This document shows, piece after piece, positions 4,713-29,326 of a DNA stretch of 64,000 nt; position 1 is the stretch's first letter, and each line of letters starts with the position of its first letter. The position numbers were made by a program, and so were the translations under genes. The notes below the pieces were generated by a model. That model searched no databases and was not told where the DNA came from. It was given only the letters and a program-made list of their open reading frames with translations. Origin of the DNA: Promethearchaeia archaeon (GTDB lineage: Archaea > Asgardarchaeota > Lokiarchaeia > Sigyniarchaeales > SOKP01). The stretch covers positions 1,005-65,004 of the forward strand of contig JAZGEW010000055.1 of the NCBI GenBank assembly GCA_036478875.1. The letters run 5' to 3'.

Positions 4713-5390
4713 TTGAGTTCCGATGTAAAGAAAGAAAAAATTATTAGAAAAGGTGCCGAGGCAAGTCTCTATTATGGGTATTGGTTTGGAAAGGAAGTGA
4801 TATTTAAACATAGAATTCCAAAGAAGTATCGTATAGGAGAATTGGATGAAAAAATTAGAACGGAAAGAACATTAAACGAAGCAAGAGCATTAATAAAAGT
4901 CAAAAAGTATGGAATAAATGTTCCACAAGTATTTGAAATTGACTCAACTAATTCCACAATAGTTATGAAATATATACAAGGTAATAAACTAAAAGATATT
5001 TTATCTGATTTAGATGACAATCTGAAGAAAAAATATTTCTATGAAATTGGTAGAATAATAGCAACTTTACATAAAAATGGACATATCCATGGCGATATAA
5101 CAACGAGTAATATAATTATAACATCAGAGGAAAATATTTTTCTCATTGATTTTGGTTTACATGAATATTCTTATACCATCGAAGACAAAAGTGTTGATCT
5201 ACATCTCTTAAAAAGAGTTTTAATCTCATCTCACGGGAAATATTATGAAATTTGTTTTAACGCGTTTCTCGAAGGATATAAGTCAGAATATGATAAAGAG
5301 AATTTTAATGAATGTTATAAGATAATTAAGAATATTGATGTCATTGAAACACGCGGTAGATATGTAAAATCGGAAGAAAGATTATATTAG
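4713..5390 (+). CDS. bud32: KEOPS complex kinase/ATPase Bud32
   Basis: 225 aa with GAEASLYYG...KHRIPKKYR and HGDITTSNIII...LIDFGL, an RIO-like Bud32 kinase core. Separate ORF directly after kae1. Confidence 0.85.
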   Translation: MSSDVKKEKIIRKGAEASLYYGYWFGKEVIFKHRIPKKYRIGELDEKIRTERTLNEARALIKVKKYGINVPQVFEIDSTNSTIVMKYIQGNKLKDILSDLDDNLKKKYFYEIGRIIATLHKNGHIHGDITTSNIIITSEENIFLIDFGLHEYSYTIEDKSVDLHLLKRVLISSHGKYYEICFNAFLEGYKSEYDKENFNECYKIIKNIDVIETRGRYVKSEERLY

Positions 5391-12181: not shown

Positions 12182-12271
12182 GTTTAATCATCTCCTTCAA
12201 ATATATTTTATTTAAGATATATTTTCATAAATCATCGATTTATTATAAGAAAAGTAATTACAGAAATTAAA

Positions 12272-12338
12272 TAAAATTTTTCATTTAGGTAAAAAGCCGA
12301 TAAATTTTGTTAAAATGCTTCTTTTAATAGAGTATGAT
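12272..12338 (+). repeat. Copy A of a 67-nt direct repeat (duplicate of the rpoN promoter and start region)
   Basis: 61 of 67 nt identical by hand alignment, with no gaps, to 13406-13472. Includes TTAAAATG...TTTTAATA and an ATG at 12334. Confidence 0.85.
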
Positions 12339-12543: not shown

Positions 12544-13386
12544 ATGTCGCTTCAAAAAAATAAGGTAATCTATTTGTTTTTATTATTATTTGGAGTAATA
12601 ATAGGAGTAATTATAGTTGTTTTATTATATGTTTTTAATTGGTCTACTATAATTGAACCCTACCAAACACATGAAGGGACTTTAGAAGTTGTCCTAACTA
12701 TAGGCATTCGAATATCTATTGTTTTTTTAATGTCTGTATATACTTTTTATAGTTGGTTTAAGCAGGAAAAACAGTATTTCTCAGATATACCTTTCCTTTT
12801 TGGTATCTTTTTCTTACTGCTCATTTTTGGGAAGTTATTAGATTTATTCATCAATTTTAGTTATTTCCAATTAGATAGCAGATTACTACTCCTTATAATG
12901 AAAGCTCGATATTTTATAGCGATTTTTGATCTCCTTCCAATGATTTTTCTTAGTATTTATATGATATTAATTTCACTTTCAGTAAAAGAACGATTCAATA
13001 AATTAACCAATGAGAAATATCTAAATAAAATTAGACTACGAATTTTGGTAATAGTCATCGCTATTGAAATTGTTGTTGATATTTTTATCCTAAGCGTAGA
13101 AAATGCCCCTATCATATACCCAATAACGATTCTTCCATCCTTGATTACTATTGTGTGGTTATTTAATTTTGCATGGAGAAATCAACGTCTTTCACAAGTT
13201 AATACCTTTATCCTTATGATCGGATTTGGATTATATTTAATTACATCAATTTTAAGACCATTAATACAATTTATTCTTGGTGAATCACCTTTATTCGTTA
13301 TTATGGCAGAGACAATAGACATAATCATTTTCTTAATAATCTTTATTGGCCTTTATAAAAAATCAAATTATTCTGCAAGGAAATAA
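12544..13386 (+). CDS. Multi-pass membrane protein, function unknown
   Basis: 280 aa with about 7-8 hydrophobic segments. Lies between the two 67-nt repeat copies. Confidence 0.5.
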   Translation: MSLQKNKVIYLFLLLFGVIIGVIIVVLLYVFNWSTIIEPYQTHEGTLEVVLTIGIRISIVFLMSVYTFYSWFKQEKQYFSDIPFLFGIFFLLLIFGKLLDLFINFSYFQLDSRLLLLIMKARYFIAIFDLLPMIFLSIYMILISLSVKERFNKLTNEKYLNKIRLRILVIVIAIEIVVDIFILSVENAPIIYPITILPSLITIVWLFNFAWRNQRLSQVNTFILMIGFGLYLITSILRPLIQFILGESPLFVIMAETIDIIIFLIIFIGLYKKSNYSARK

Positions 13387-13405
13387 ATTGAATATTGAGT
13401 GTATC

Positions 13406-13472
13406 TAAAATTTTTCATTTAGTTAAAAAACCTAAAAATTTTTTTAAAATGCTTCTTTTAATAAAGTATGAT
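13406..13472 (+). promoter_or_regulatory. Copy B of the 67-nt repeat; candidate rpoN promoter (leaderless)
   Basis: An A/T box TTTAAAAT lies about 25 nt upstream of the rpoN ATG (13468). The repeat ends 2 nt after the ATG. Confidence 0.5.
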
Positions 13473-17018: not shown

Positions 17019-17321
17019 CTAAATATTCCTTGCTCTATGTGGTAAGCAACTCGGAAATGTTCGAAAAAATACTGAAAATGCAATATCTTCCTTACCCTCA
17101 TGAAGCAATTTTCTAACACTTTCTAAATTCTCTTTCTGATTAAGTAATATATTATTAGGAGTACTAAGTTGAGCAGTGTTTTTAATTTGGAAGTTAAAAT
17201 TTTCGATTACTCTGTTTCCATTATCGTTTTTGAAATTTCTAAAATCTTTTCGACATACTTTTAAAACATTACCATATTCCGGTTTCTTAGGAAATTTTCC
17301 TTTTGCAATCGTATATACCAT
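17019..17321 (-). CDS. Hypothetical protein
   Basis: 100-aa ORF with no recognisable motif. Coding status is uncertain. Confidence 0.3.
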   Translation of the reverse strand: MVYTIAKGKFPKKPEYGNVLKVCRKDFRNFKNDNGNRVIENFNFQIKNTAQLSTPNNILLNQKENLESVRKLLHEGKEDIAFSVFFRTFPSCLPHRARNI

Positions 17322-17699
17322 TTATTTTTCACACTTCAATGCTTAAGATGTAATTTTTATTATTTTGATATAAATGTCAAGTTTGATATAAATAGTTTGC
17401 TAGGTATCAATGATTTGTATATATTCTTAAAATCTTATTTTTATCTCTTATATTATCATTGGAGACCAAATCGAGCAGAAGTTGCTTTTATAATTTCAGA
17501 AATAATTTCAATATCTTTCTGGGTAAAATTTGGAGTATAATAAGTAGGTTTATGTAAATGTTTGGTATAATACTTTTTATAAATTTTTTTTTGTAATATT
17601 TATTTAAATTGGCAAATAATATTTAAACATCACAAGATTTGGTTTAATAATCCAGTGATAAACATAATTTTAAATACAGAAATAAATACATGAAATAAA

Positions 17700-18557
17700 A
17701 TGTCTGAAAATAATTATAATTCTTGGATAAAAAAATTAGTTCCTCTAGGAATATTTATTGGTGTTATTTTATTAACAGCAGAAGTAGATTGGGCTGCAGA
17801 ACATTCAGAAGTAGGATTAGCTATACGACTTGTATGGCTAATTAGCTTATTAAGTTTAGGACTAATATTACCTATCGGATTTATGTATCTTGCAGGTAAT
17901 ATGAAAAGTGAAAGAGGAGAATCTGATAAAAAATGGTTCATAGTCGCAATAATTCTATTCTTGTTCGCCAATGGGATACCAATTGTCTTTTACGTCATTC
18001 TTGGAATTTCGCAAGGATTTTTCTTATATCTTCAATTAGTATTATTTGGATTAATTCCAGCCTTTTTTCTTCAACCAAAAAAATTTAATTATCGAATTCT
18101 GATATTACTTATTCTTTTTGCTGCAATCATAGCCCCTATAGGGTTTCTTGTTAATTCCACTATTGATGATCTGTGGTATGCGGGTGTGACTGATAAAACA
18201 ATGTATTATTTATCCTTCTGGGGTCTTTTAATGACATTTTTTTATCTCATTATTGCTATTGGTTGGAAATTAGGTGGTGGCTCTAAAAGACAAAGTTGGA
18301 ATATCTTTGTTGCTGGAACGCTTTTACAATATAGCACTCTTGAAGATTTCTTTTACTTCTTCTTAAATGGACAACCTCTACCCGGGACTTGGCCTTGGAT
18401 GAGCAACTTTGTAATTAATCTAGAAGTTTTATTTGGTCATATTCCTACAGATTTAGATCTATTAATTTTCTGCTTAATAATATCATCTATAGCCATCTTT
18501 ATTTTATTCGATGGACATGGTTATATCTGGAATAAACTTAAGCATAAATCCCTATAA
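17700..18557 (+). CDS. Multi-pass membrane protein, function unknown
   Basis: 285 aa with many hydrophobic segments. Confidence 0.5.
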   Translation: MSENNYNSWIKKLVPLGIFIGVILLTAEVDWAAEHSEVGLAIRLVWLISLLSLGLILPIGFMYLAGNMKSERGESDKKWFIVAIILFLFANGIPIVFYVILGISQGFFLYLQLVLFGLIPAFFLQPKKFNYRILILLILFAAIIAPIGFLVNSTIDDLWYAGVTDKTMYYLSFWGLLMTFFYLIIAIGWKLGGGSKRQSWNIFVAGTLLQYSTLEDFFYFFLNGQPLPGTWPWMSNFVINLEVLFGHIPTDLDLLIFCLIISSIAIFILFDGHGYIWNKLKHKSL

Positions 18558-18621
18558 ATTCCCCTATTTTTATTTTCTATTAATATCTTTAAGTAAAAAT
18601 TTTCAATTTCTATAAAAAAAT

Positions 18622-18671
18622 TCCGATCAATAATTTTATTAATAGAAGATTAACTCTAGAATATTGTAGAT
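18622..18671. repeat. Left copy of a perfect 50-bp direct repeat
   Basis: tccgatcaataattttattaatagaagattaactctagaatattgtagat is identical to 23433-23482. Identity breaks on both flanks. Confidence 0.95.
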
Positions 18672-19354
18672 AAACCGTATTTGAATACCATTTTAAGCGG
18701 TTTTCGCATATTTATTTTTATCTGATGACTAGAAAATAAATCAATAATAAAAACAGACAATATAACAACTGACAGAATTAAGATTGGAATTATAACTTCA
18801 AGTACAAATATCATCTTAAATATGGTCTGAGAAACGTTTGTAAATGTCTGAAAGAATTGAACAAACCCACTCCAATCAAAAATATTCTTTTGTGTCTCTG
18901 GACCTTTCTGAACATCTAATATCTTAAATTTGATCATTAAACAAGTATTATAATACTGATCTGTACCATTTCCATAAGTTAATGCTGTAGTGTTTGTGAT
19001 ATCGTCTATTCCATCGCGGTTCTCATCTATACACTTATCCAACCAGATCAGGTCGCTTTCATAATATACCTTTCTCCCTAACAGATTTTTATAAAGGCCT
19101 AAAATAAGACCTGTGGTATCATTTTCTGTTATAGGTACCATGGTAACCCATATGATAGTATCAAGGAGGGGATTTAATGTATCGTAATTTCTGGAGCGAT
19201 CTGATTCCCATACTGTATAATCAATCTTAACTGTGTCATACTTCTCTACAGTTTTCGGTTTACTATAAGTAAAAATTGTAGCACCAACAATAAATAAAAT
19301 TAGAACAACACATATCAAAACAATGATTTTTGTACGAGATCGATATTTTTTCAT
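18656..19354 (-). CDS. Membrane-anchored hypothetical protein (N- and C-terminal TM segments)
   Basis: 232 aa with N-terminal IIVLICVVLILFIVGATIF and C-terminal VLEVIIPILILSVVILSVFIIDLF. The last 5 codons and the stop lie inside the left 50-bp repeat. Confidence 0.5.
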   Translation of the reverse strand: MKKYRSRTKIIVLICVVLILFIVGATIFTYSKPKTVEKYDTVKIDYTVWESDRSRNYDTLNPLLDTIIWVTMVPITENDTTGLILGLYKNLLGRKVYYESDLIWLDKCIDENRDGIDDITNTTALTYGNGTDQYYNTCLMIKFKILDVQKGPETQKNIFDWSGFVQFFQTFTNVSQTIFKMIFVLEVIIPILILSVVILSVFIIDLFSSHQIKINMRKPLKMVFKYGLSTIF

Positions 19355-19419
19355 TTACCTTTTTTCAATCCTTAAGCATAAAATAAAATAAAATAAAATT
19401 AAAATAAAAAAATTGTTGA

Positions 19420-20595
19420 TTATTTTTTCATTATTTTTTTGAGTATAACAACCGATATTATGCTAATGAGTCCGAGTATGAGAAAAGTTTCATATCCTGG
19501 AATGGCTTGATCTCCATCTGGTGGTATAAGCATAATATTATGGGCAATATAATTATAGCGACAGGTCTCCAATGAGATCGGACTATTTAGGCTAGTCTGG
19601 GCAGTCCGAAGTTTAAAGGTATTAACGGAAAGTGCTCCAGACGTTTTAGGTCCAAATTCTAGGGTTTCATTCACAACAACCGTATTATTTAAAATGATGT
19701 TTCCTATGCAGTCTTCTTCTTTAATCCCAAAAACCTCAAACGAGCCGTAAGCGAGATCTCCCGCAAAAATGTTTCCCACAATCTGACAATAAGATATTTT
19801 GATACAATGCATTGGAGTCCCCCTATAATCTTTCCCCTTAAGTGTATTTTCCAAATAATTCCCTTTTATAATACTGTTCGTTACTGTAAATTGATATCCC
19901 CCGCCTACATATATTGCACTATAATGATTACGGATTTTATTGTTAATAATCGTTACATTCGACGCTTCACCTCCTACATGAATAGCTCGACTGAGTCCCG
20001 CTGTAGTATGGTCGCTTATCATAATATTATTCGATACTGTGTTGTTATATGATTGCGTTTCGATATTAACTCCCTTACGTGTATAGGTGAAAATATTATT
20101 ATCTATAGTTCCATTACCAGTCCAATGCAAGCACACCCCATTGTCATACCCATCCGCCCCAGAATAATTAAACCAGCAATTTCTTATGATGAAATACTTT
20201 TTCGAATGTCTGATGTAAATCATTCCACCTGAGCCCTGTCCGTTAATGTAGAGATTTTCAATGACATACGGATCAGAATATGTACCACTCCCGGTACACC
20301 ACTCATTTTCTGCTGCTGTTTTATCCCACGTATAGCTAGAGTTAGTCTCATCTATAAATATTCGAAATTCATAAATACCCCGCCCTTCGGATTGGTCAAA
20401 TGCAGGTTTTGTAAAATTAATATAATCGGATGTATTCCATGAGACAGCGCTACTTTCCAGATCGTATCCAAAATCCGAGTTTTTCTGTTCTTTATCAGGT
20501 GGAATCGGCGACCTCAAAATTGATGGTACTGAAAATATTGCTAATACCATTAAAACCACTAAAAAAAAGATAGTACCTTTATGCTTCACTTTCAC
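19420..20595 (-). CDS. Right-handed parallel beta-helix repeat surface protein with PGF-CTERM-like tail
   Basis: Has an N-terminal signal anchor. Repeated N-N-I/N-x-I rungs (DNNIFTYTRKGVNIE..SNNIMIS..IINNKIRN..IKGNYLEN) are typical of NosD/pectin-lyase-like PbH1 repeats. The C-terminus is IPGYETFLILGLISIISVVILKKIMKK. Confidence 0.7.
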   Translation of the reverse strand: MKVKHKGTIFFLVVLMVLAIFSVPSILRSPIPPDKEQKNSDFGYDLESSAVSWNTSDYINFTKPAFDQSEGRGIYEFRIFIDETNSSYTWDKTAAENEWCTGSGTYSDPYVIENLYINGQGSGGMIYIRHSKKYFIIRNCWFNYSGADGYDNGVCLHWTGNGTIDNNIFTYTRKGVNIETQSYNNTVSNNIMISDHTTAGLSRAIHVGGEASNVTIINNKIRNHYSAIYVGGGYQFTVTNSIIKGNYLENTLKGKDYRGTPMHCIKISYCQIVGNIFAGDLAYGSFEVFGIKEEDCIGNIILNNTVVVNETLEFGPKTSGALSVNTFKLRTAQTSLNSPISLETCRYNYIAHNIMLIPPDGDQAIPGYETFLILGLISIISVVILKKIMKK

Positions 20596-20817
20596 CTTCC
20601 AAACCCCTTCTTTTTGTTTTATGTTTATTGTTTATATTAATAATTTATTATGAGTGTTAAATATTTAAACATTGGTATGAATCGATATATTTTCATTAGT
20701 TTTCCCCCTCCTAAAATTTGATAGAGACCCAAAGTTTTATAGATTTTTTGTACATGAAAAAATCACATCCTGTGTTTTTTGGTCAAAATTGTAGAAATTT
20801 TTTTATCACAAATTGAC

Positions 20818-21153
20818 TTAAAGTTCAGATAAAAATTGTGAAAATTCTAAAATCGTCCTCTTGAATTTTTTTAAAAATGTCTCGAGAGCAGGTAGAGCAA
20901 CTACAGTGAATTGTGCCCCATTTTTATGTATTTCACTGTCAAAGTTTTTTATTACCAATCCCGCATCAACTGCTTTATCAATATAATTATATAATGTCGA
21001 TTTACAAATACCTGTCTCTTTTATGATTTCACTTACGATACACTCCCGATATTCATAAATTAATTTACATACATAACATATATTTCGATATCTTTTTAAT
21101 TCCTCAACTAAATTCCATTTATTTCCTTCTTTCTTATAATTTTCATTTTTCAT
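20818..21153 (-). CDS. Winged helix-turn-helix DNA-binding protein
   Basis: 111 aa. CIVSEIIKETGICKSTLYNYIDKAVDAGLVIKNF fits an HTH plus wing pattern. Confidence 0.6.
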   Translation of the reverse strand: MKNENYKKEGNKWNLVEELKRYRNICYVCKLIYEYRECIVSEIIKETGICKSTLYNYIDKAVDAGLVIKNFDSEIHKNGAQFTVVALPALETFLKKFKRTILEFSQFLSEL

Positions 21154-21276
21154 ATCATCACTTCTCGAGATCTGTTAAAAAATATATTTTATATGCAATT
21201 CATGCAAGTATATTTAAAGAAAAAAAATCTGGACTATATTTAAAGGAAAAATTTTGCCTTAATACTCAAACCAACC

Positions 21277-21315
21277 TTTTTTGTACAAAAAACTTGTCCA
21301 TACCTTTGGACAAGT
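21277..21315. promoter_or_regulatory. Two adjacent perfect palindromes in the divergent intergenic region
   Basis: T6-GTAC-A6 spans 21277-21292. A 9-bp inverted repeat ACTTGTCCA / TGGACAAGT (21292-21300 and 21307-21315) has a 6-nt spacer. Confidence 0.35.
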
Positions 21316-21571
21316 CTGAGAATCTATCAAAATTTTGAACACATAAAGTTTCTCTATTTTCTGCAATAGTGAAAAAATAAACATTTATAAATCCAATAAT
21401 AATATATATAACCAATCAAGAAAGATAACGTACCAGCGGTGTTTTTTATCAAATATCATCAGATGGTAGGAGTTGGTTTGTATTCCTTAAATTCAAGTTT
21501 TTTACTTTCATATCAGTGTTCTGGTATTTTTCTTTATAAGTATTGATCTAATATTAAAATAAAAATTAGGA

Positions 21572-21859
21572 ATGAGTTATAAAATGGCAATTGAAAATAA
21601 GTTTCCAAGTCATAACATCCCTCTCGTTTCAAATGATTTTAAGAATACCTATTTAGGAGCTATTCCTACAGATAGGATAATCGAATATAGCCTAGAGGAG
21701 TTTAAATCTGAAACGAAAGTATTCGCCGAAAGGCAAATCGCTTCTTATCAAAAGAAGATCGATAATTTACGTGCCCTTAATCATCCTGAAATGAAATCAG
21801 AGTATATTAAGCGAATCAATAGACTTATTTTAATAGAAAGAGGTGAGATTACCGAATGA
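21572..21859 (+). CDS. Hypothetical protein
   Basis: 95 aa with no recognised family. Its stop overlaps the next start (ATGA at 21856-21859), suggesting an operon. Confidence 0.4.
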   Translation: MSYKMAIENKFPSHNIPLVSNDFKNTYLGAIPTDRIIEYSLEEFKSETKVFAERQIASYQKKIDNLRALNHPEMKSEYIKRINRLILIERGEITE

Positions 21860-22416
21860 AGCGGTCATTAAAGTTGGGGCTTAGATTGGGTTTGTTTATC
21901 GTGCTTGTTTTGCTAGTGAATTTAAGTACATTTACTACAGGGGGATCTGTTTCAATATCGGATTTTGTAATATATAATCTATTTGCCATTTCTATATTTT
22001 GTTATATTTATATTATTGCGGTAATAGGCATCTTCTTAGTGTCTTCATTCAGATCATTATGGTTTCACTATAAGTTTAAAGGATCATCTAAATATCAGAG
22101 AGTACAAATTACAGCCACCCTTTCCGCTTCACTTGCAATATTTATAACTATTTTTATAGGTATTTTGATCTTTGTATATAATCTTTTACTCTTAGCTGTT
22201 AATGAATATGAACAATTTCTTGGTCTCACTCAAGACCAAGGTCTGTTGAGTGAATATAAGGAATTACATCAAGCTACTATTGATGCTTTTAATAGGGATA
22301 AGATCACATCTGACCTAGCTTTACAGGCTTTACGTAGTATAAGACGACAAGCTCTTCTCAATTTACAAGCTCATAAAGAGAGATATAGAATGTATTTTCT
22401 AGGAAATTATCCATAA
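21856..22416 (+). CDS. Hypothetical membrane protein
   Basis: 186 aa with about 4 hydrophobic segments followed by a polar helical tail. Confidence 0.5.
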   Translation: MKRSLKLGLRLGLFIVLVLLVNLSTFTTGGSVSISDFVIYNLFAISIFCYIYIIAVIGIFLVSSFRSLWFHYKFKGSSKYQRVQITATLSASLAIFITIFIGILIFVYNLLLLAVNEYEQFLGLTQDQGLLSEYKELHQATIDAFNRDKITSDLALQALRSIRRQALLNLQAHKERYRMYFLGNYP

Positions 22417-22452
22417 ATTTAAATATATATATATTCTTTTTTTTTAATAGAT

Positions 22453-23325
22453 ATGAAAGTCCTGCAGATTCTTAATCTTGTAACAGAAGCAGCAGAAGGA
22501 AAAGATAACATCAGAGAAGGTATTGTAGGTTCTAATTGTTACGGTTTTATTTTTAAGGATCTTGATACTAACTCTAAAGCACATTATATTATTTCTTTTT
22601 CTAGTCATAAATTTTGTGGTGCGGGGTCATGCCGTGAGACATTAAAGAATTTAAAGAGAGTTAGTAGTTTTGAGGAACTAAGAAGTCTAACTCGAGGTGA
22701 TGAATATGATGATTTGTTACTTGCTGGTTCTTTAAAAACTTTGGTCCCAACACTTCAATTTGGGGGTTATGAGCTTCTTTTTAAAACTTGGGTGTTTGTA
22801 AAGACTCCGAGAGGTCGAGTATTTCCTGCTACAATTTACTGGGGACAATCAGGGCTTTCTATAGGAGGATGGACCTCATATGATATAACTCCTCTTACAA
22901 AAGAAAGAGTTTTTCCAGAAGATCTTTTAGAAGTTATAAATTTTAGTCTTTTTGAGTTTAATGAAGACGAAAAAGGTTGTTTTCTCGATGCTCTTGAGTT
23001 TGCTCTTAAGAAAGTTCCCCCTTCAGATTTTTGGGGTGTATTGAATCACGATATAGGCAATTCTTATATGGGAATAAAGAAAGGAAAACCTTTTATTAAA
23101 GAGATAGGATATTGTGAAAGAGATTTGGAGACCGAGAAAGAAATTGAATCTTTATTAGGAAGAAAATTAAGAGATGCAGATGGAGAATTGTTTACCATTA
23201 GATTTCTGCCCGGTAGGAAAATCTACGTTATGGAATTTGAATATGATTATGAGACAGAAGATAAATTCTTCGGAAATGCTAAAGAAATATTAAGTTTATA
23301 CAAAGATTTAATAAAGTTACCATAA
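22453..23325 (+). CDS. Hypothetical protein
   Basis: 290 aa, soluble-looking, with no motif I recognise. Confidence 0.45.
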   Translation: MKVLQILNLVTEAAEGKDNIREGIVGSNCYGFIFKDLDTNSKAHYIISFSSHKFCGAGSCRETLKNLKRVSSFEELRSLTRGDEYDDLLLAGSLKTLVPTLQFGGYELLFKTWVFVKTPRGRVFPATIYWGQSGLSIGGWTSYDITPLTKERVFPEDLLEVINFSLFEFNEDEKGCFLDALEFALKKVPPSDFWGVLNHDIGNSYMGIKKGKPFIKEIGYCERDLETEKEIESLLGRKLRDADGELFTIRFLPGRKIYVMEFEYDYETEDKFFGNAKEILSLYKDLIKLP

Positions 23326-23432
23326 GACTCCTAACTGGAATTGAAAAGATTTCCGCAATAGATTATTGGTTATCATTTGAAATTTTTCTTATATATTTTT
23401 TTCTCGTTCTGCTATTTTTTTCAATTAAGGAC

Positions 23433-23482
23433 TCCGATCAATAATTTTATTAATAGAAGATTAACTCTAGAATATTGTAGAT
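23433..23482. repeat. Right copy of the perfect 50-bp direct repeat
   Basis: Identical to 18622-18671. Intergenic, 80 nt upstream of fae-hps. Confidence 0.95.
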
Positions 23483-23561
23483 GTTATCTCAAAAATACAT
23501 TATTATAAATAAAAAATATCTACAAATTAATCAATTAATCAAAAATTAGAATATTGTAATT

Positions 23562-24848
23562 ATGGCAAAAGCTGAATATTACATCGGAGAAGCCTTAATG
23601 GGAGAGTCTCCTAACCTAGCTCATATAGATTTAATAGTTGGTTCAAAAGATGGACCTGTAGGAATCTCTTTCGCAAATGCACTAAGCACGCCCTCAAAAG
23701 GCCACGGTGGATTGCTTGCGACTATTAGACCTAATCTTTTATCTAAACCCGTCTCTTTGATCGTTCCTAAAGTCACGATATCGGATATGGAAGATGCTAA
23801 CAAAATTTTTGGCCCTGCTCAGGCAGCAGTAGCAAAAGGTATTGCTGATGCCGTAGAAGAAGGTTTAATCCCTATGAATAAATTGGATGAATGGGTAATA
23901 ATTGCGAGTGTATTTATACATCCTGAAGCTACCGATTACCGAAAAATCTATCAATATAATTATGGTGCTACAAAATTAGCAATTCAGAGAGCTCTTAAGA
24001 GTTATCCTCCAATTGAAAAGATATTTTATGATAAAGACCGTGCTAAACACCCAGTTGCGGGTATACGAGTCCCCAGACTTTGGCGTCCCCCATATATACA
24101 AGTAGCATTAGATCACCCTGCCTTGGAAAAGCAAATTAAAGTAGTTAAGGAATTACCAAAGAGTGATCGTATCATACTAGAAGTTGGAACACCATTTCTC
24201 AAGAAATATGGTGTTGAATCAATTAAACAAATTCGCGAAGTTGCGAAAGAAAAATTTATTGTTGCTGATCTGAAGACTTTAGATGTTGGAAAATTAGAGG
24301 TTGATTTTGCTTTTGATGCAACTGCAGATGGAGTTGTAGCAAGTGGTTTAGCTGCTACTGCCTCACTCGATAAGTTTATTTTAGAAGCTCAACGACTCGG
24401 AATTCATGCATTTGTTGATACAATGGAAGTTCAAGATCCTATTGAGAAGCTAAGTTCCTTAAAACAAATACCAGATGTCGTGATAATTCATAGAGGAATT
24501 GATGTCGAACAATCTGCTGCAGGAGATAAATCCCCTGACGCTCAACAACGGCAGAGATGGGCATTAGCTCCAAAAATTAAAGAATTGTACGCAAGTAAAA
24601 AGAAAGCTTCAGGTAAGGATAGAGTACTGGTTGCTGTTGCTGGAGGTATTGAACCAAGTTCTGCAGCATATGCATTGGAGGCTGGAGCTGATATTTTAAT
24701 AGTAGGACGCTTTATCGCATCAGCTAAAGACGTTAGATTTGCTATGAGAAGAATACTAAGTGTTCTCCCAGGTTATCAAGACATCGATCTAAAGCGAATT
24801 CATACGGAAGACGATGATAACGAAGTAAAGAACGCTACATGGGATTGA
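23562..24848 (+). CDS. fae-hps: Bifunctional formaldehyde-activating enzyme / 3-hexulose-6-phosphate synthase (Fae-Hps)
   Basis: The N-terminus YIGEALMGESPNLAHIDLIVGSKDGPVG is Fae-like. The second half, YIQVALDH...ILEVGTPFLKKYG...VADLKTLD...GRFI, is Hps/OMPDC-like. This fusion is known in archaea for the reverse RuMP pentose route. Confidence 0.85.
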   Translation: MAKAEYYIGEALMGESPNLAHIDLIVGSKDGPVGISFANALSTPSKGHGGLLATIRPNLLSKPVSLIVPKVTISDMEDANKIFGPAQAAVAKGIADAVEEGLIPMNKLDEWVIIASVFIHPEATDYRKIYQYNYGATKLAIQRALKSYPPIEKIFYDKDRAKHPVAGIRVPRLWRPPYIQVALDHPALEKQIKVVKELPKSDRIILEVGTPFLKKYGVESIKQIREVAKEKFIVADLKTLDVGKLEVDFAFDATADGVVASGLAATASLDKFILEAQRLGIHAFVDTMEVQDPIEKLSSLKQIPDVVIIHRGIDVEQSAAGDKSPDAQQRQRWALAPKIKELYASKKKASGKDRVLVAVAGGIEPSSAAYALEAGADILIVGRFIASAKDVRFAMRRILSVLPGYQDIDLKRIHTEDDDNEVKNATWD

Positions 24849-24952
24849 GACATCCTAATTTACAAAAATATACTTAATTTTTTTTAGATCTCCATTTTAT
24901 CAAAAATAATCAATAAAATATTTTAAGAAAAAAAATAGGAAAAAAAAGGTAA

Positions 24953-25750
24953 TTATTTAATTTTTTTTGCTTCTTCAACCCAATCTTCAATTTCTTCTAA
25001 TCTAGGAGGTTTTCTAAATACATCAGGTTTCTTTTTATCTAATTCCATAATTCGATCTAACGTATTCTTAGGGTTTCGCTGGGCTAGCTCTTTAATACTA
25101 TCGACTCCGATTTGATTAAGAACATCTGCATATTCTGGTCCTACCCCCCCTATTCTCATCAAATCAGCATGTTCCGCCCATTTATCTATCAATTTCTCTG
25201 AAATCTTAGTAGTTGTTGATAAATTTTTAATCTTAACGGAATCAAATGATATGAAATCCTCAATGTTAGATAATCCTGCTTTTTCTAATGTTTTGGAGTA
25301 CTTGGGACCAATTCCCTCAATTTCTATAATAGGAGTTATTTTTGGACTTGTTTTAGCTTTCTTATCTTCGTATATTTCTTTTGCTTGCCCGATCCAACCA
25401 TCGATATCTTCTGCCTTAGGAATTTTACGAATTACATCGGGTTGCTTTTTGTCAAACTCAACTATTTTATCTAATGTCTTTTGCGGATTTCTGAAGGAGA
25501 GCTCTTTAATGGAATCAATTCCTACCTTATTTAAAACTTCAGAATATTCAGGACCAACACCCTTGAGTTCCATTATTTCTGCTTGATCTTGCCATTTTTC
25601 AAGTAATTTTACTGAAATCTTTGTTTTTCCTGCTAATTCTTTTATTTCTCGCCATGTAAGGGGTATTAAATTTTCTACTTCTGCAATCCCCTCTTTCTCT
25701 AAAATTTTGGCATATTTTTCGCCAATACCTTCAATTTCAATAATTTTCAT
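24953..25750 (-). CDS. Tandem-duplicated helix-hairpin-helix protein (DUF4332-like)
   Basis: Two ~130-aa halves share IEIEGIG.KY.K.LEK.G..., KGVGPEY..VLN..G..SIKEL and KK.PDV.RK.P. GIG/GVG HhH motifs recur. Confidence 0.5.
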   Translation of the reverse strand: MKIIEIEGIGEKYAKILEKEGIAEVENLIPLTWREIKELAGKTKISVKLLEKWQDQAEIMELKGVGPEYSEVLNKVGIDSIKELSFRNPQKTLDKIVEFDKKQPDVIRKIPKAEDIDGWIGQAKEIYEDKKAKTSPKITPIIEIEGIGPKYSKTLEKAGLSNIEDFISFDSVKIKNLSTTTKISEKLIDKWAEHADLMRIGGVGPEYADVLNQIGVDSIKELAQRNPKNTLDRIMELDKKKPDVFRKPPRLEEIEDWVEEAKKIK

Positions 25751-25921
25751 TTTATACGCCTTTTATTGTTTTAAATTTCGAATTTTAATGAGTATGTAAA
25801 AATATTATATGTTCTTTTTTAATATTTTAGTCAATGAAAAATAAATTTACACTTTGTATCTTTATTAACAAATGAATGATTTAGATAGACTGAGAAATGA
25901 TTGTTTCATTATTTTCAATTT

Positions 25922-27451: not shown

Positions 27452-29326
27452 ATGGTAAAATCCATAAACGTACATAAAAAAGAAGCTAAATTAATATTAG
27501 CATTAATTATAGGTTTATTATTATTTCAAGCAATTTTACCTTATATAGAGGCAGATGATCTGGTTGACGGTCCATTAGATATATCTACTCCACAAAAATC
27601 TATCAATGTCAGTATTGGTAATAGTGCTACAATAGATTGGAGTTTTAGTGTCCCTTCTCATGAATATGCCGTATATTGGGAAATAATAGGACATGGTGTC
27701 AATAAAAGTGGTTGGGGAATAAATGCTAATTGCACAATTCCCGTTGTAACTACTAATGGTACTATATGGATTTATAATTGTAGTGGATATTATGCAAAAT
27801 ATCATGTATGGTGTACTGTATCAGTCATAGGTCAAGAAGAAGTAAGTGGCAGAGATAACGACGGAGTGGATGGTATTTACGCCCAGAAAGTTAATTCTAA
27901 CGGTGTAAACCGATGGGCTGTGAACGGTACCGCAATCTGTATAGCAAGTGGTGATCATAAATCCCCTCAAATTGTCAGTGATGGAGCAGGGGGTGCAATT
28001 ATTACTTGGGAGGAATCTAATATTTATACCCAAAAAGTAAATTCAGATAGTGAGATCCAATGGGATTTGAATGGTAACGCAATCTGCACTGAAGGTGGGA
28101 CTCAAAAAAGTCCTCAACTTGTCAGTGATGGAGCAAATGGCACTATTATTACTTGGCAGGATAGTAGAGATGGAGATTATGATATTTACGCTCAGAAAGT
28201 TAATTCTAGCGGTGATATCCAATGGATTGCAAATGGTACCGCAATTTGTACGGCAAATGGTAGTCAAGAATTCCCTCAACTTGTTAGTGATGGAGTAGGC
28301 GGCGCAATTATTACTTGGCAAGATAATAGAAACGGAGATTATGATATTTACGCTCAAAAAGTTAATTCTAGTGGCGATGTCCAATGGATTGTGAATGGTA
28401 CTACAATCTGCACGGCAAATGGTAGTCAAGAATTCCCTCAACTTGTTAGTGAAGGAGTAAATGGCACTATTATTACTTGGCAGGATAATAGAACCGGAGA
28501 TTTTGATATTTACGCTCAGAAATTTAATTCTAGTGGCGAAATACAATGGATTGCAAATGGTACCGCAATTTGTACGGCAAATGGTAGTCAAGAATTCCCT
28601 CAACTTGTTAGTGATGGAGTAAACGGTACTATTATTACTTGGCAAGATAGTAGAGACGGAGCTGATGATATTTTCATTCAGAAAGTTAATTTTAGCGGCG
28701 ATGTTCAATGGTTTGCGAACGGTACCGCAATCTGCACGGCAAATGGTGATCAAGTGGTACCTCAACTTATAAATGATGGAGCAAACGGCACCATTATTAC
28801 TTGGCAGGATAGTAGAGACGGAGATTATGATATATATGCTCAGAAAGTTAATTCTAGCGGCGATAACCAATGGACTGTAAATGGTACTGCAATCTGTACA
28901 GCAAATAGTGATCAATTGGTGCCTCAACTTATCAGTGATAGTGCAAACGGCACTATTATTACTTGGCAGGATAGTAGAGATGGAGCTGATGATATTTACG
29001 CTCAGAAAGTTAATTCCAACGGCGGAGTGCAGTGGACCACGTACGGTAAAGCAATCTGCATAGCAAATGGTGATCAATTAGTACCACAACTTGTTAGTGA
29101 TGGGGTAGGAGGTGCAATTATTACTTGGATTGATAACAGAGTTGAATTGAGTGGTGGAGATAATGGCGGAGATAATGGTGGAGATGATAATGGATACGTT
29201 GACGAATATGATACATATATTCCCGGATTTCCTCCATTTCTTTTTATCATTATATTTTCAATATGCGTGATTTTTAAAATTATTATATTCCAGATAAAGT
29301 CTAAAAAAGAAAAATTCAAAAAATAA
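27452..29326 (+). CDS. Secreted repeat (beta-propeller-like) surface protein with PGF-CTERM-like anchor
   Basis: Carries a signal anchor and an N-domain paralogous to the next ORF. Eight units of the type DIYAQKVNSSGDIQW..NGTAICTANG.Q..PQLVSDG..G.IITWQD.R.GD follow, then a GGDNGGDNGGDDNG linker and the tail YIPGFPPFLFIIIFSICVIF...KSKKEKFKK. Confidence 0.7.
   Translation: MVKSINVHKKEAKLILALIIGLLLFQAILPYIEADDLVDGPLDISTPQKSINVSIGNSATIDWSFSVPSHEYAVYWEIIGHGVNKSGWGINANCTIPVVTTNGTIWIYNCSGYYAKYHVWCTVSVIGQEEVSGRDNDGVDGIYAQKVNSNGVNRWAVNGTAICIASGDHKSPQIVSDGAGGAIITWEESNIYTQKVNSDSEIQWDLNGNAICTEGGTQKSPQLVSDGANGTIITWQDSRDGDYDIYAQKVNSSGDIQWIANGTAICTANGSQEFPQLVSDGVGGAIITWQDNRNGDYDIYAQKVNSSGDVQWIVNGTTICTANGSQEFPQLVSEGVNGTIITWQDNRTGDFDIYAQKFNSSGEIQWIANGTAICTANGSQEFPQLVSDGVNGTIITWQDSRDGADDIFIQKVNFSGDVQWFANGTAICTANGDQVVPQLINDGANGTIITWQDSRDGDYDIYAQKVNSSGDNQWTVNGTAICTANSDQLVPQLISDSANGTIITWQDSRDGADDIYAQKVNSNGGVQWTTYGKAICIANGDQLVPQLVSDGVGGAIITWIDNRVELSGGDNGGDNGGDDNGYVDEYDTYIPGFPPFLFIIIFSICVIFKIIIFQIKSKKEKFKK
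27875..29140 (+). repeat. Coding tandem repeat, 8 units, 162-bp period
   Basis: Unit starts at 28022, 28184, 28346, 28508, 28670, 28832 and 28994 are in exact 162-bp register. The first unit is 147 bp. A 78-nt stretch is identical between 28220-28297 and 28544-28621. Confidence 0.9.

Follow-up and report, generated by a model that had tools for sequence, protein, structure and literature searches.

Chromosomal hotspots of gene turnover between conserved core genes are a concept of bacterial comparative genomics, and the integrase islands and proviruses of archaea include SSV-type elements with a split integrase and elements that target tRNA genes. Homology-facilitated illegitimate recombination (HFIR) is known from Acinetobacter, Streptococcus pneumoniae, and Pseudomonas stutzeri, and has been invoked for the displacement of effector modules in the type VI secretion system (T6SS) clusters of Vibrio cholerae and in Rhs loci (PMC5361080). 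Here we examine a 4.8-kb gene island (18672-23432) in a 64,000-nucleotide stretch of DNA from a Promethearchaeia archaeon (contig JAZGEW010000055.1), hereafter the window. The island lies upstream of the gene fae-hps and is bracketed by two identical direct copies of a 50-nt sequence, which we call E. An earlier note, made from the sequence alone, had read the repeats as an att-type duplication and the island as a relic, an element mobilized in trans, or a cassette. Our comparisons show that E is instead a conserved element of the host, and we hold, with slightly better than even confidence, that the island is a lineage-specific mosaic of accessory genes in a turnover hotspot, brought in by one foreign tract through HFIR or a Campbell-type insertion.

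Several features of the window are those of HFIR. One end is anchored in a conserved gene, with a homologous junction and an abrupt change of identity in fae-hps at about 24327, and the other is a non-homologous junction, joined over a few nucleotides of microhomology (TTA), that cuts the gene I1 in the middle. The donor gene is truncated at this illegitimate end, leaving I1', and resident sequence, one copy of E, is left beside the new module. The differences lie in what is left behind, a 50-nt putative regulatory element here and an orphan gene in the known cases, and in the host, which here is an Asgard archaeon; the literature that we searched gave no archaeal example of HFIR.

With turnover hotspots, the locus shares conserved syntenic flanks, variable cargo, an absence of mobility genes from the scanned cargo, and a mosaic of sequence identity, the last of which indicates homologous recombination through the flanks. 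It differs in that the site is pinned to one intergenic region of ~250 bp and repeatedly duplicates one promoter-proximal element. Archaeal integrase islands likewise show direct repeats of a host target sequence and empty sites in relatives, both of which were found here. In contrast to them, the window contains neither a whole nor a split integrase, the ends of the island are not intact, and neither a free form nor attP or another copy of the same element was found among viral, plasmid, and genome sequences. The target is not a tRNA gene, and integration into one was rejected, since the window contains no tRNA gene.

Conservation of the repeated element upstream of fae-hps

The window holds just two copies of the 50-nt sequence TCCGATCAATAATTTTATTAATAGAAGATTAACTCTAGAATATTGTAGAT, at 18622-18671 and 23433-23482, each on the plus strand and without a mismatch between them, as the earlier note had reported; no exact repeat of this length is expected by chance (100 shuffles). 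The sharp loss of identity described for its flanks is present at all four edges, the left edges reading ...aaaaaaat/TCCG and ...taaggac/TCCG and the right edges AGAT/aaaccg and AGAT/gttatc. The left copy is contiguous with intergenic DNA of the backbone type, and the right copy occupies the normal position of E, about 80-130 nt 5' of the fae-hps ATG.

We fetched 80 loci around fae-hps from Asgard genomes and compared them, together with 13 metagenome loci, with the window (loci carry labels beginning with L below). Within this set, the loci close to the window come from genomes of Promethearchaeota (Lokiarchaeal). The last 42 nt of the 50-mer, ATAATTTTATTAATAGAGnATTAACTCTAGAATAATGTAGAT, form a core that is present 100-150 nt 5' of the fae-hps start in nearly all of the 80 loci (about 75 Lokiarchaeal loci) and persists at Fae-Hps identities as low as 77%. 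Over 76 loci, the core has a mean pairwise identity of 0.757, compared with 0.504 at the third codon positions of fae-hps and 0.40-0.46 in the adjacent upstream DNA. A second conserved block, TATA-like and located 3' of the core (TTATAAATA), reaches an identity of 0.705. At window positions 23433-23520 and the homologous positions of L003-L106, both non-coding blocks thus stand well above synonymous-site conservation and are candidate promoter or operator elements; a literature search found no description of the two blocks.

An exact-pattern scan of JGI metagenomes with the E core gave 13 places, 12 of them directly 5' of fae-hps. At the thirteenth, L094, the upstream context is kept and fae-hps is replaced: E and the second block are intact at L094:2250-2650, with an aminotransferase neighbor upstream, and a fragment of a thiolase-like gene on the other strand takes the place of fae-hps. 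This arrangement reflects either a rearrangement breakpoint just 3' of the promoter region or an assembly chimera.

The earlier note had asked whether the 50-mer might be a multi-copy genomic repeat. Across ~1.4 Mb of fetched loci and the metagenome scan, E was seen at the fae-hps locus only, and a dispersed repeat family was rejected for this reason. A structured RNA was also rejected, as 17300-24000 holds no meaningful Rfam match; palindrome variants in the E alignment are not compensatory when read by eye. Neither the exact 50-mer nor the degenerate core matched any viral contig in IMG/VR.

These comparisons identify E as a conserved host element confined to a single locus. Its AT-rich, TATA-like stretch, together with the palindrome TAGAGnATTAACTCTA, leads us to infer that E is a putative promoter or operator of fae-hps; it also holds a 5-bp inverted repeat with a 6-nt spacer. 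The proposal of an att-type duplication unrelated to dispersed repeats is therefore right in part: the duplication is real, non-random, and confined to one locus, but the duplicated sequence is a host cis-element, strongly conserved 5' of fae-hps in nearly every relative, rather than an att sequence brought by an element. That the two copies are identical need not mean that the duplication is recent: L022 carries the same 50-mer although it is only about 80-87% identical to the window overall (about 81% across fae-hps). We propose that the copies are identical because E is under strong purifying selection.

The two junctions and the empty site

When the interior and one copy of the 50-mer are removed, 114 + 79 = 193 nt remain between memb285 (17700-18557) and fae-hps (23562-24848), in agreement with the normal spacer of about 190 bp that had been predicted. 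The gene memb285, on the plus strand in the left backbone, encodes a membrane protein without a family match and is about 94% identical at the nucleotide level to its counterparts in L004 and L096. Real empty sites, for which the earlier note had suggested looking, were found in L022 (227 nt) and L096 (229 nt), where memb285, one copy of E, and fae-hps follow each other with no insert. The closest relative, L004, is about 94% identical to the window across memb285 and about 95% downstream of fae-hps, and carries a B12-radical SAM paralogue, radSAM2, where the window has the island.

On the left, the window matches L004, L096, and L022 as far as two bases past E. Positions 18565-18673 are 97% identical to the L022 empty site, over 109 nt spanning the left junction, and are continuous with L096 and L004. 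Immediately inside lies I1' (18656-19354, minus strand), which encodes a C-terminally truncated membrane protein of 232 aa whose homology ends at ...VFKYGL. I1 has 34 homologues, and the full-length ones measure 273-299 aa and have two more transmembrane helices. At the junction the protein reads ...KYGL/STIF and stops, where relatives run on as ...KYGLMIG and about 60 residues more, and the nucleotide match to the closest relative, L110 (84.6%), stops at precisely 18671. The left copy of E supplies the STIF codons and the stop. The earlier observation that the repeat provides the end of this open reading frame (ORF) was thus accurate, but the gene is truncated at the junction and has not simply borrowed its last codons. 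The microhomology consists of the 3 nt TTA; on the coding strand, the I1-type sequence is GGT TTA ATG, the backbone GC TTA TCT, and the product GGT TTA TCT.

The right side is of a different character. The fae-hps leader (23483-23561, plus strand) contains the second block, TTATAAATA, a likely TATA box, and differs in sequence type from the backbone relatives: a segment AAGCATTTTTTTAT follows E in L004, L022, L096, and L003 and is missing from the window, whose best leader matches are L026 and L029 at 90%. The divergence continues into the 5' part of fae-hps (23562-24327, plus strand), the right end of the diverged tract. Relative to L004, there are 90 mismatches in the first 765 nt of the gene and 9 in the remaining 522 nt. 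The maximum chi-square break falls at 24327 (Fisher p = 7e-13); a break as strong was seen in 0 of 500 permutations. Past this point the sequences are about 99% identical, and the downstream genes are again at about 95%. Against the backbone relatives L004 and L096, similarity is therefore lost from the left junction to ~24327. L003 and L004 look like bearers of the ancestral arrangement of the clade, and the window of a derived one, because the two are uniformly about 90% identical across memb285-radSAM2-E-fae-hps.

An identity shift within fae-hps was also observed in L016, which is about 90% identical to the L003 group over the 5' 769 nt and about 78% over the 3' 518 nt. Because of this similar shift, recombination breakpoints inside fae-hps seem common among these lineages.

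A turnover hotspot with repeated duplication of E

Synteny is kept around the site, which is flanked by radSAM-MGMT-orf100 and, across the gap, by fae-hps-(DUF4332)-U32. In most loci the gap between orf100 and fae-hps measures 220-310 bp, the ancestral state, while about 25 loci carry unrelated cargo in it: a sulfotransferase together with memb285, radSAM2, an aminotransferase, a luciferase-like oxidoreductase, a 1275-aa CN-hydrolase protein, and genes similar to I6 of the island. No integrase was present among the hotspot cargo proteins scanned. The gap is a hotspot of gene turnover and recombination. Variation extends to the region downstream of fae-hps (window 24849-25921), where just some of the relatives possess a DUF4332 gene and where, in L004, an additional ~1.4 kb separates fae-hps from DUF4332 (L004:5473-6837).

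A second direct copy of E brackets cargo beside fae-hps in three more loci. In L015, a perfect 30-nt repeat, which ends within the palindrome, surrounds a single I6-like gene on the minus strand, and L016 and L044 are empty-site relatives. In L034, a 42-nt repeat with 90% identity surrounds radSAM2, and no empty-site relative was identified. In L017, radSAM2 lies within a repeat of about 165 nt (62 nt at 97%), with L037 as the empty-site relative. The duplicated length thus varies among loci (30, about 42, 50 in the window, and about 165 nt), and the orientation of the cargo relative to the repeats is inconsistent, I6 being on the plus strand in the window and its counterpart in L015 on the minus strand. 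In both L034 and L017, identity between the copies drops near the same position as in the window.

The L017 locus is the clearest of these. The whole orf100/fae-hps intergenic region of about 165 nt is duplicated there and brackets the radical-SAM gene (L017:3505-3670 and 5150-5315, against L037:9730-9895). Set against L037, the left copy has native sequence on its left side and turns foreign toward the right, and the right copy shows the reverse order, foreign first and then native. Because native and foreign segments are swapped between the two copies in this way, L017 has the appearance of a clean Campbell-type (ends-in) homologous insertion, an exact B-O-P' / P-O-B' mosaic over about 165 nt of homology. 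The window is formally compatible with the same scheme with a 50-nt O, but the sequence to the right of its right copy is not native-type, and the inserting circle would need an illegitimate joint between E and I1'.

Origin of the island

From the conservation of E, the empty sites, the truncated I1, the chimeric I5 described below, the identity break in fae-hps, and the varied cargo of the hotspot, we infer the following donor and order of events. The donor would have been a diverged relative with the arrangement ...I1-I2-I3 / I4-I5-I6 - E - leader - fae-hps, and the recipient a chromosome like those of L004 and L096, with memb285 - E - fae-hps. The right crossover would have been homologous and located inside fae-hps near 24327, while the left join would have been illegitimate, connecting the interior of donor I1 to the recipient just past the resident E. 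A tract from about 18672 to about 24327 would have been imported in this single event. With the resident E kept and the donor E imported, E would end up duplicated. In a variant of this scheme, a Campbell-type (ends-in) homologous insertion would have taken place at E, as in L017, and homologous recombination in the conserved flanks would afterwards have spread the new allele. Taken as HFIR or in its Campbell-type variant, this origin is the one we favor, though by no means strongly.

The content of the island fits poorly with a discrete element. Its left end cuts a gene and an operon, I5 is chimeric, and the I6 family is usually already found beside fae-hps. Bulk composition does not mark the island, with a GC content of 0.314 versus 0.299 and a tetranucleotide rank of 7 among 50 windows. 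Codon usage is atypical for the window in I1 (z = -2.1), I2 (z = -3.8), and I5 (z = -3.0), and I6 does not deviate; the composition check suggested in the earlier note therefore separates some genes from the flanks by their codons, and neither I6 nor the island as a whole by GC or tetranucleotides.

Several observations weigh against an import of this kind. A donor with the contiguous tract was not found among the 80 genome loci, the 13 metagenome loci, or the protein databases, and the best match to the 5' part of fae-hps is 90%. The closest homologues of the island genes are 71-82% identical and lie in other contexts (I6 71%, I5 75%, I1 82%), so that the contiguity of the imported tract is itself a reconstruction. 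The illegitimate join lies 0-2 nt from the end of E, which would be a coincidence if joining were random. The divergence of the copies near the same position in L034 and L017 may hint at a preferred break site, for which the base of the TAGATA...TATCTA inverted repeat is a speculative candidate. The polarity of the break in fae-hps is ambiguous, in that the 5' part of the window is 88-90% identical to the L003 group and that of L004 85-87%, and L004 could be the recombinant. Finally, the analysis rests on one metagenome contig, and strain-switching during assembly could mimic the identity break.

Alternative explanations

An explanation that retains some credit, though we consider it unlikely, is that a larger element integrated at E, used as attB, by means of a tyrosine or serine recombinase whose gene lay near attL or which acted in trans. 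A later deletion from attL into I1 would have removed the recombinase and the rest of the operon, and the break in fae-hps would be an unrelated event. Perfect direct repeats with sharp edges and empty sites in relatives are what such an element would leave, but the DNA beyond attR on the right is of a non-native type, and at the left end a gene and its operon are cut. The inverted repeat in E, with its 5-bp arms and 6-nt spacer, resembles the geometry of a recombinase core site, and the window, L034, and L017 lose identity between their copies at almost the same point; the duplicated length, however, ranges from 30 to about 165 nt. E is duplicated round cargo in four loci, including L015 with its single gene within a perfect 30-nt repeat ending in the palindrome, yet the cargo is inconsistently oriented (I6 on the plus strand in the window, on the minus strand in L015) and consists elsewhere of ordinary metabolic genes. 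The enzyme itself is also missing. Profile searches, which the earlier note had recommended, matched none of the six ORFs to an integrase, transposase, or other recombinase family in Pfam, PHROGs, NCBIfam, or PADLOC, which bears out its remark that the island lacks a recombinase. No recombinase Pfam family was detected among the genes called within 10 kb on either side, and the scanned hotspot cargo was likewise free of integrases and transposases. No viral contig carries E, and I1, I2, and I6 are without viral relatives.

An assembly artefact is less probable still. The assembler would have passed from one strain to another, or to an extrachromosomal circle, by way of E and the parts of fae-hps that are identical. 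The window does lie within a 77.7-kb contig (JAZHCG010424298.1) of a large metagenome assembly (GCA_044240345.1), but a second contig with the same proteins and neighboring genes is listed in the index. The exact repeat spans just 50 nt and recurs unchanged in other lineages (L022), and the identity shift relative to L004 falls where the sequences become about 99% identical, all of which would suit a misjoin. The junction between E and I1', on the other hand, must be present in real reads under any assembly path. The duplications with diverged copies in L017 and L034, found in independent assemblies of other studies, cannot confuse an assembler, and that of L015 is a perfect 30-nt repeat. As for a circle, one of 4.8 kb with a truncated gene and no recognizable replication gene is implausible.

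We see a similarly small chance that the duplication was selected for regulation, the extra E being kept as a promoter or operator that places the new cargo genes under fae-hps-type control. In L017 and L034, each copy of E does precede a plus-strand gene (radSAM2, then fae-hps), but the left copy of the window points into the 3' end of a truncated gene on the opposite strand, where it could drive antisense transcription only; the gene bracketed in L015 is on the opposite strand as well. Purifying selection on E and the still perfect left copy of the window agree with a selected function, which would account for the retention of the duplicate and not for its origin.

It is also improbable, to about the same degree, that E serves gene capture in Lokiarchaeia as a dedicated recombination site, in a cassette-style system poor in recombinases that duplicates E next to the fae-hps promoter. 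A trans-acting or unrecognized enzyme would then cut at or near the TAGAGnATTAACTCTA palindrome or the ...TGTAGAT edge. If this were true, the I6-like gene of L015, radSAM2 in L017 and L034, and the 4.8-kb block of the window would be examples of such capture.

Other candidates were dismissed more readily. A transposon or insertion sequence was rejected, as there is no transposase family match, a whole-window scan gave no inverted-repeat pair at the island ends, and the duplication length is variable. An integron-like array was rejected for the lack of an integrase, for repeats that are direct promoter-region copies and not attC-like (no dedicated attC search was made), and for the inconsistent orientation. 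A viral or plasmid origin is unsupported, with no IMG/VR match for the 50-mer or the E core and no viral relatives of the I1, I2, and I6 families.

Genes of the island

The six ORFs are arranged as the earlier note described, including the ATGA overlap at 21856-21859. In the minus arm, I1' lies next to I2 (19420-20595), which encodes a parallel beta-helix (NosD-like) surface protein with a sorting tail (Pfam NosD, 5.6e-08; TIGR03804). The tail had been called PGF-CTERM-like; it is instead a Loki-CTERM sorting signal, scoring 19.4 bits with NF033507, just below the 19.9 cut-off. Because of this tail, I2 has the appearance of a typical Lokiarchaeal surface protein. It is 39% identical to a 372-aa protein of L090. 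I3 (20818-21153, minus strand), the first gene of the I3-I2-I1 operon, encodes a small winged-helix protein with weak HTH_5, MarR, and TrmB matches, and is 63% identical over its full length to a 115-aa protein that heads the same operon in L090.

In L090 and L092, the gene order is winged-helix protein (63% to I3), beta-helix protein (39% to I2), and I1-like protein (52%), followed by genes for proteins of 368 and 763 aa. Because this operon continues beyond the I1-like gene, the minus arm is the front part of an operon that was cut at the left junction. A 244-aa gene located 3' of an I3/I2-like pair in L031 was considered as a counterpart of I1 and rejected, as it is not I1-like.

Between the arms lies a divergent intergenic spacer (21154-21571). 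It measures 418 nt, in keeping with the ~420 bp first given, but the palindromes noted in it amount to weak, AT-rich inverted repeats, and it has no Rfam match.

The plus arm, whose three ORFs had been described as belonging to no recognizable family, begins with I4 (21572-21859), a 95-aa ORF without a significant match in Pfam, PHROGs, NCBIfam, or PADLOC. I5 (21856-22416, plus strand) is a near-orphan, with a single homologue among 5.8 billion proteins, located on a 530-nt contig. Its C-terminal 78 residues (a remnant at 22180-22416) match the C-terminus of proteins of 402-441 aa, and the rest matches nothing else; tblastn searches with the L083 and L085 representatives (L083_441 and L085_402) gave matches confined to 22180-22413. 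The genes for these 402-441-aa proteins are convergent to I6-like genes in L083, L085, L099, and L108. The family itself (L083:1396-2721, 441 aa; L085:10952-12160, 402 aa) has no Pfam match, and a ...VDYTISP...EKC... stretch within it, as read by eye, resembles the motif of PD-(D/E)xK nucleases.

I6 (22453-23325, plus strand) belongs to a family of 69 proteins, all source-named members of which come from Promethearchaeota or a marine sediment metagenome. An I6-like gene adjoins fae-hps in 8 of 11 contexts (window, L009, L015, L083, L085, L087, L097, and L099), and in the remaining three (L107-L109) it lies elsewhere in the genome. Where it adjoins fae-hps, it is divergent from it in all cases except the window, in which the two are co-directional. 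I6 is thus flipped in the window relative to its usual orientation, with the promoter-like motif TCCATAAATTTAAAT retained upstream. An AlphaFold2 model of I6 (pLDDT 90, pTM 0.85) has no structural match in the PDB or BFVD, and the sequence has no match in the PDB. Larger proteins combine the N-terminal domain of I6 (about 220 aa) with LRR or WD40 repeats, which suggests a domain of signaling or conflict systems. We considered I6 as a hidden recombinase and rejected this possibility in view of the confident but unmatched model and these fusions.

I6-like genes often pair with a convergent gene for a 402-441-aa protein. In L083 (1396-9901), the lineage with the closest I6 homologue, genes for two TIR-domain proteins, an Nmad3 protein, and a Type_ISP_C-domain protein form a defence-island-like neighborhood beside fae-hps, I6, and the 441-aa gene. 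Membership of the window's island in a defence system was rejected, since its proteins have no significant PADLOC match and only weak HTH-type ones.

Two further repeats were observed in the window. Tandem repeats of 162 nt (6-8 copies, 70-84% identical), encoding 54-aa repeats, occupy 27860-29133 in a large plus-strand ORF 3' of the U32 peptidase gene. Two direct copies of an 88-nt sequence, with 82% identity, lie 1134 nt apart at 12251-12338 and 13385-13472 and may represent duplicated upstream regions of adjacent genes.

Implications

The tempting idea of a recombinase-less mobile island is a false lead, and testable observations now take its place. The island is an example of ordinary genome plasticity, found in this instance in an Asgard archaeon. 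The 42-50-nt non-coding element E, kept across Lokiarchaeia, is a candidate promoter or operator in organisms whose transcription signals are hardly known. The I6 family, often linked to fae-hps and with an unmatched predicted fold, is a by-product of interest. One short intergenic region serves as a turnover hotspot. Its mosaic identities and the Campbell-type duplication of L017 indicate that homologous, and occasionally illegitimate, recombination moves accessory genes between Asgard lineages. Such accessory-gene traffic would need no dedicated mobile-element machinery, which bears on gene acquisition by Asgard archaea as it is discussed in the context of eukaryogenesis.

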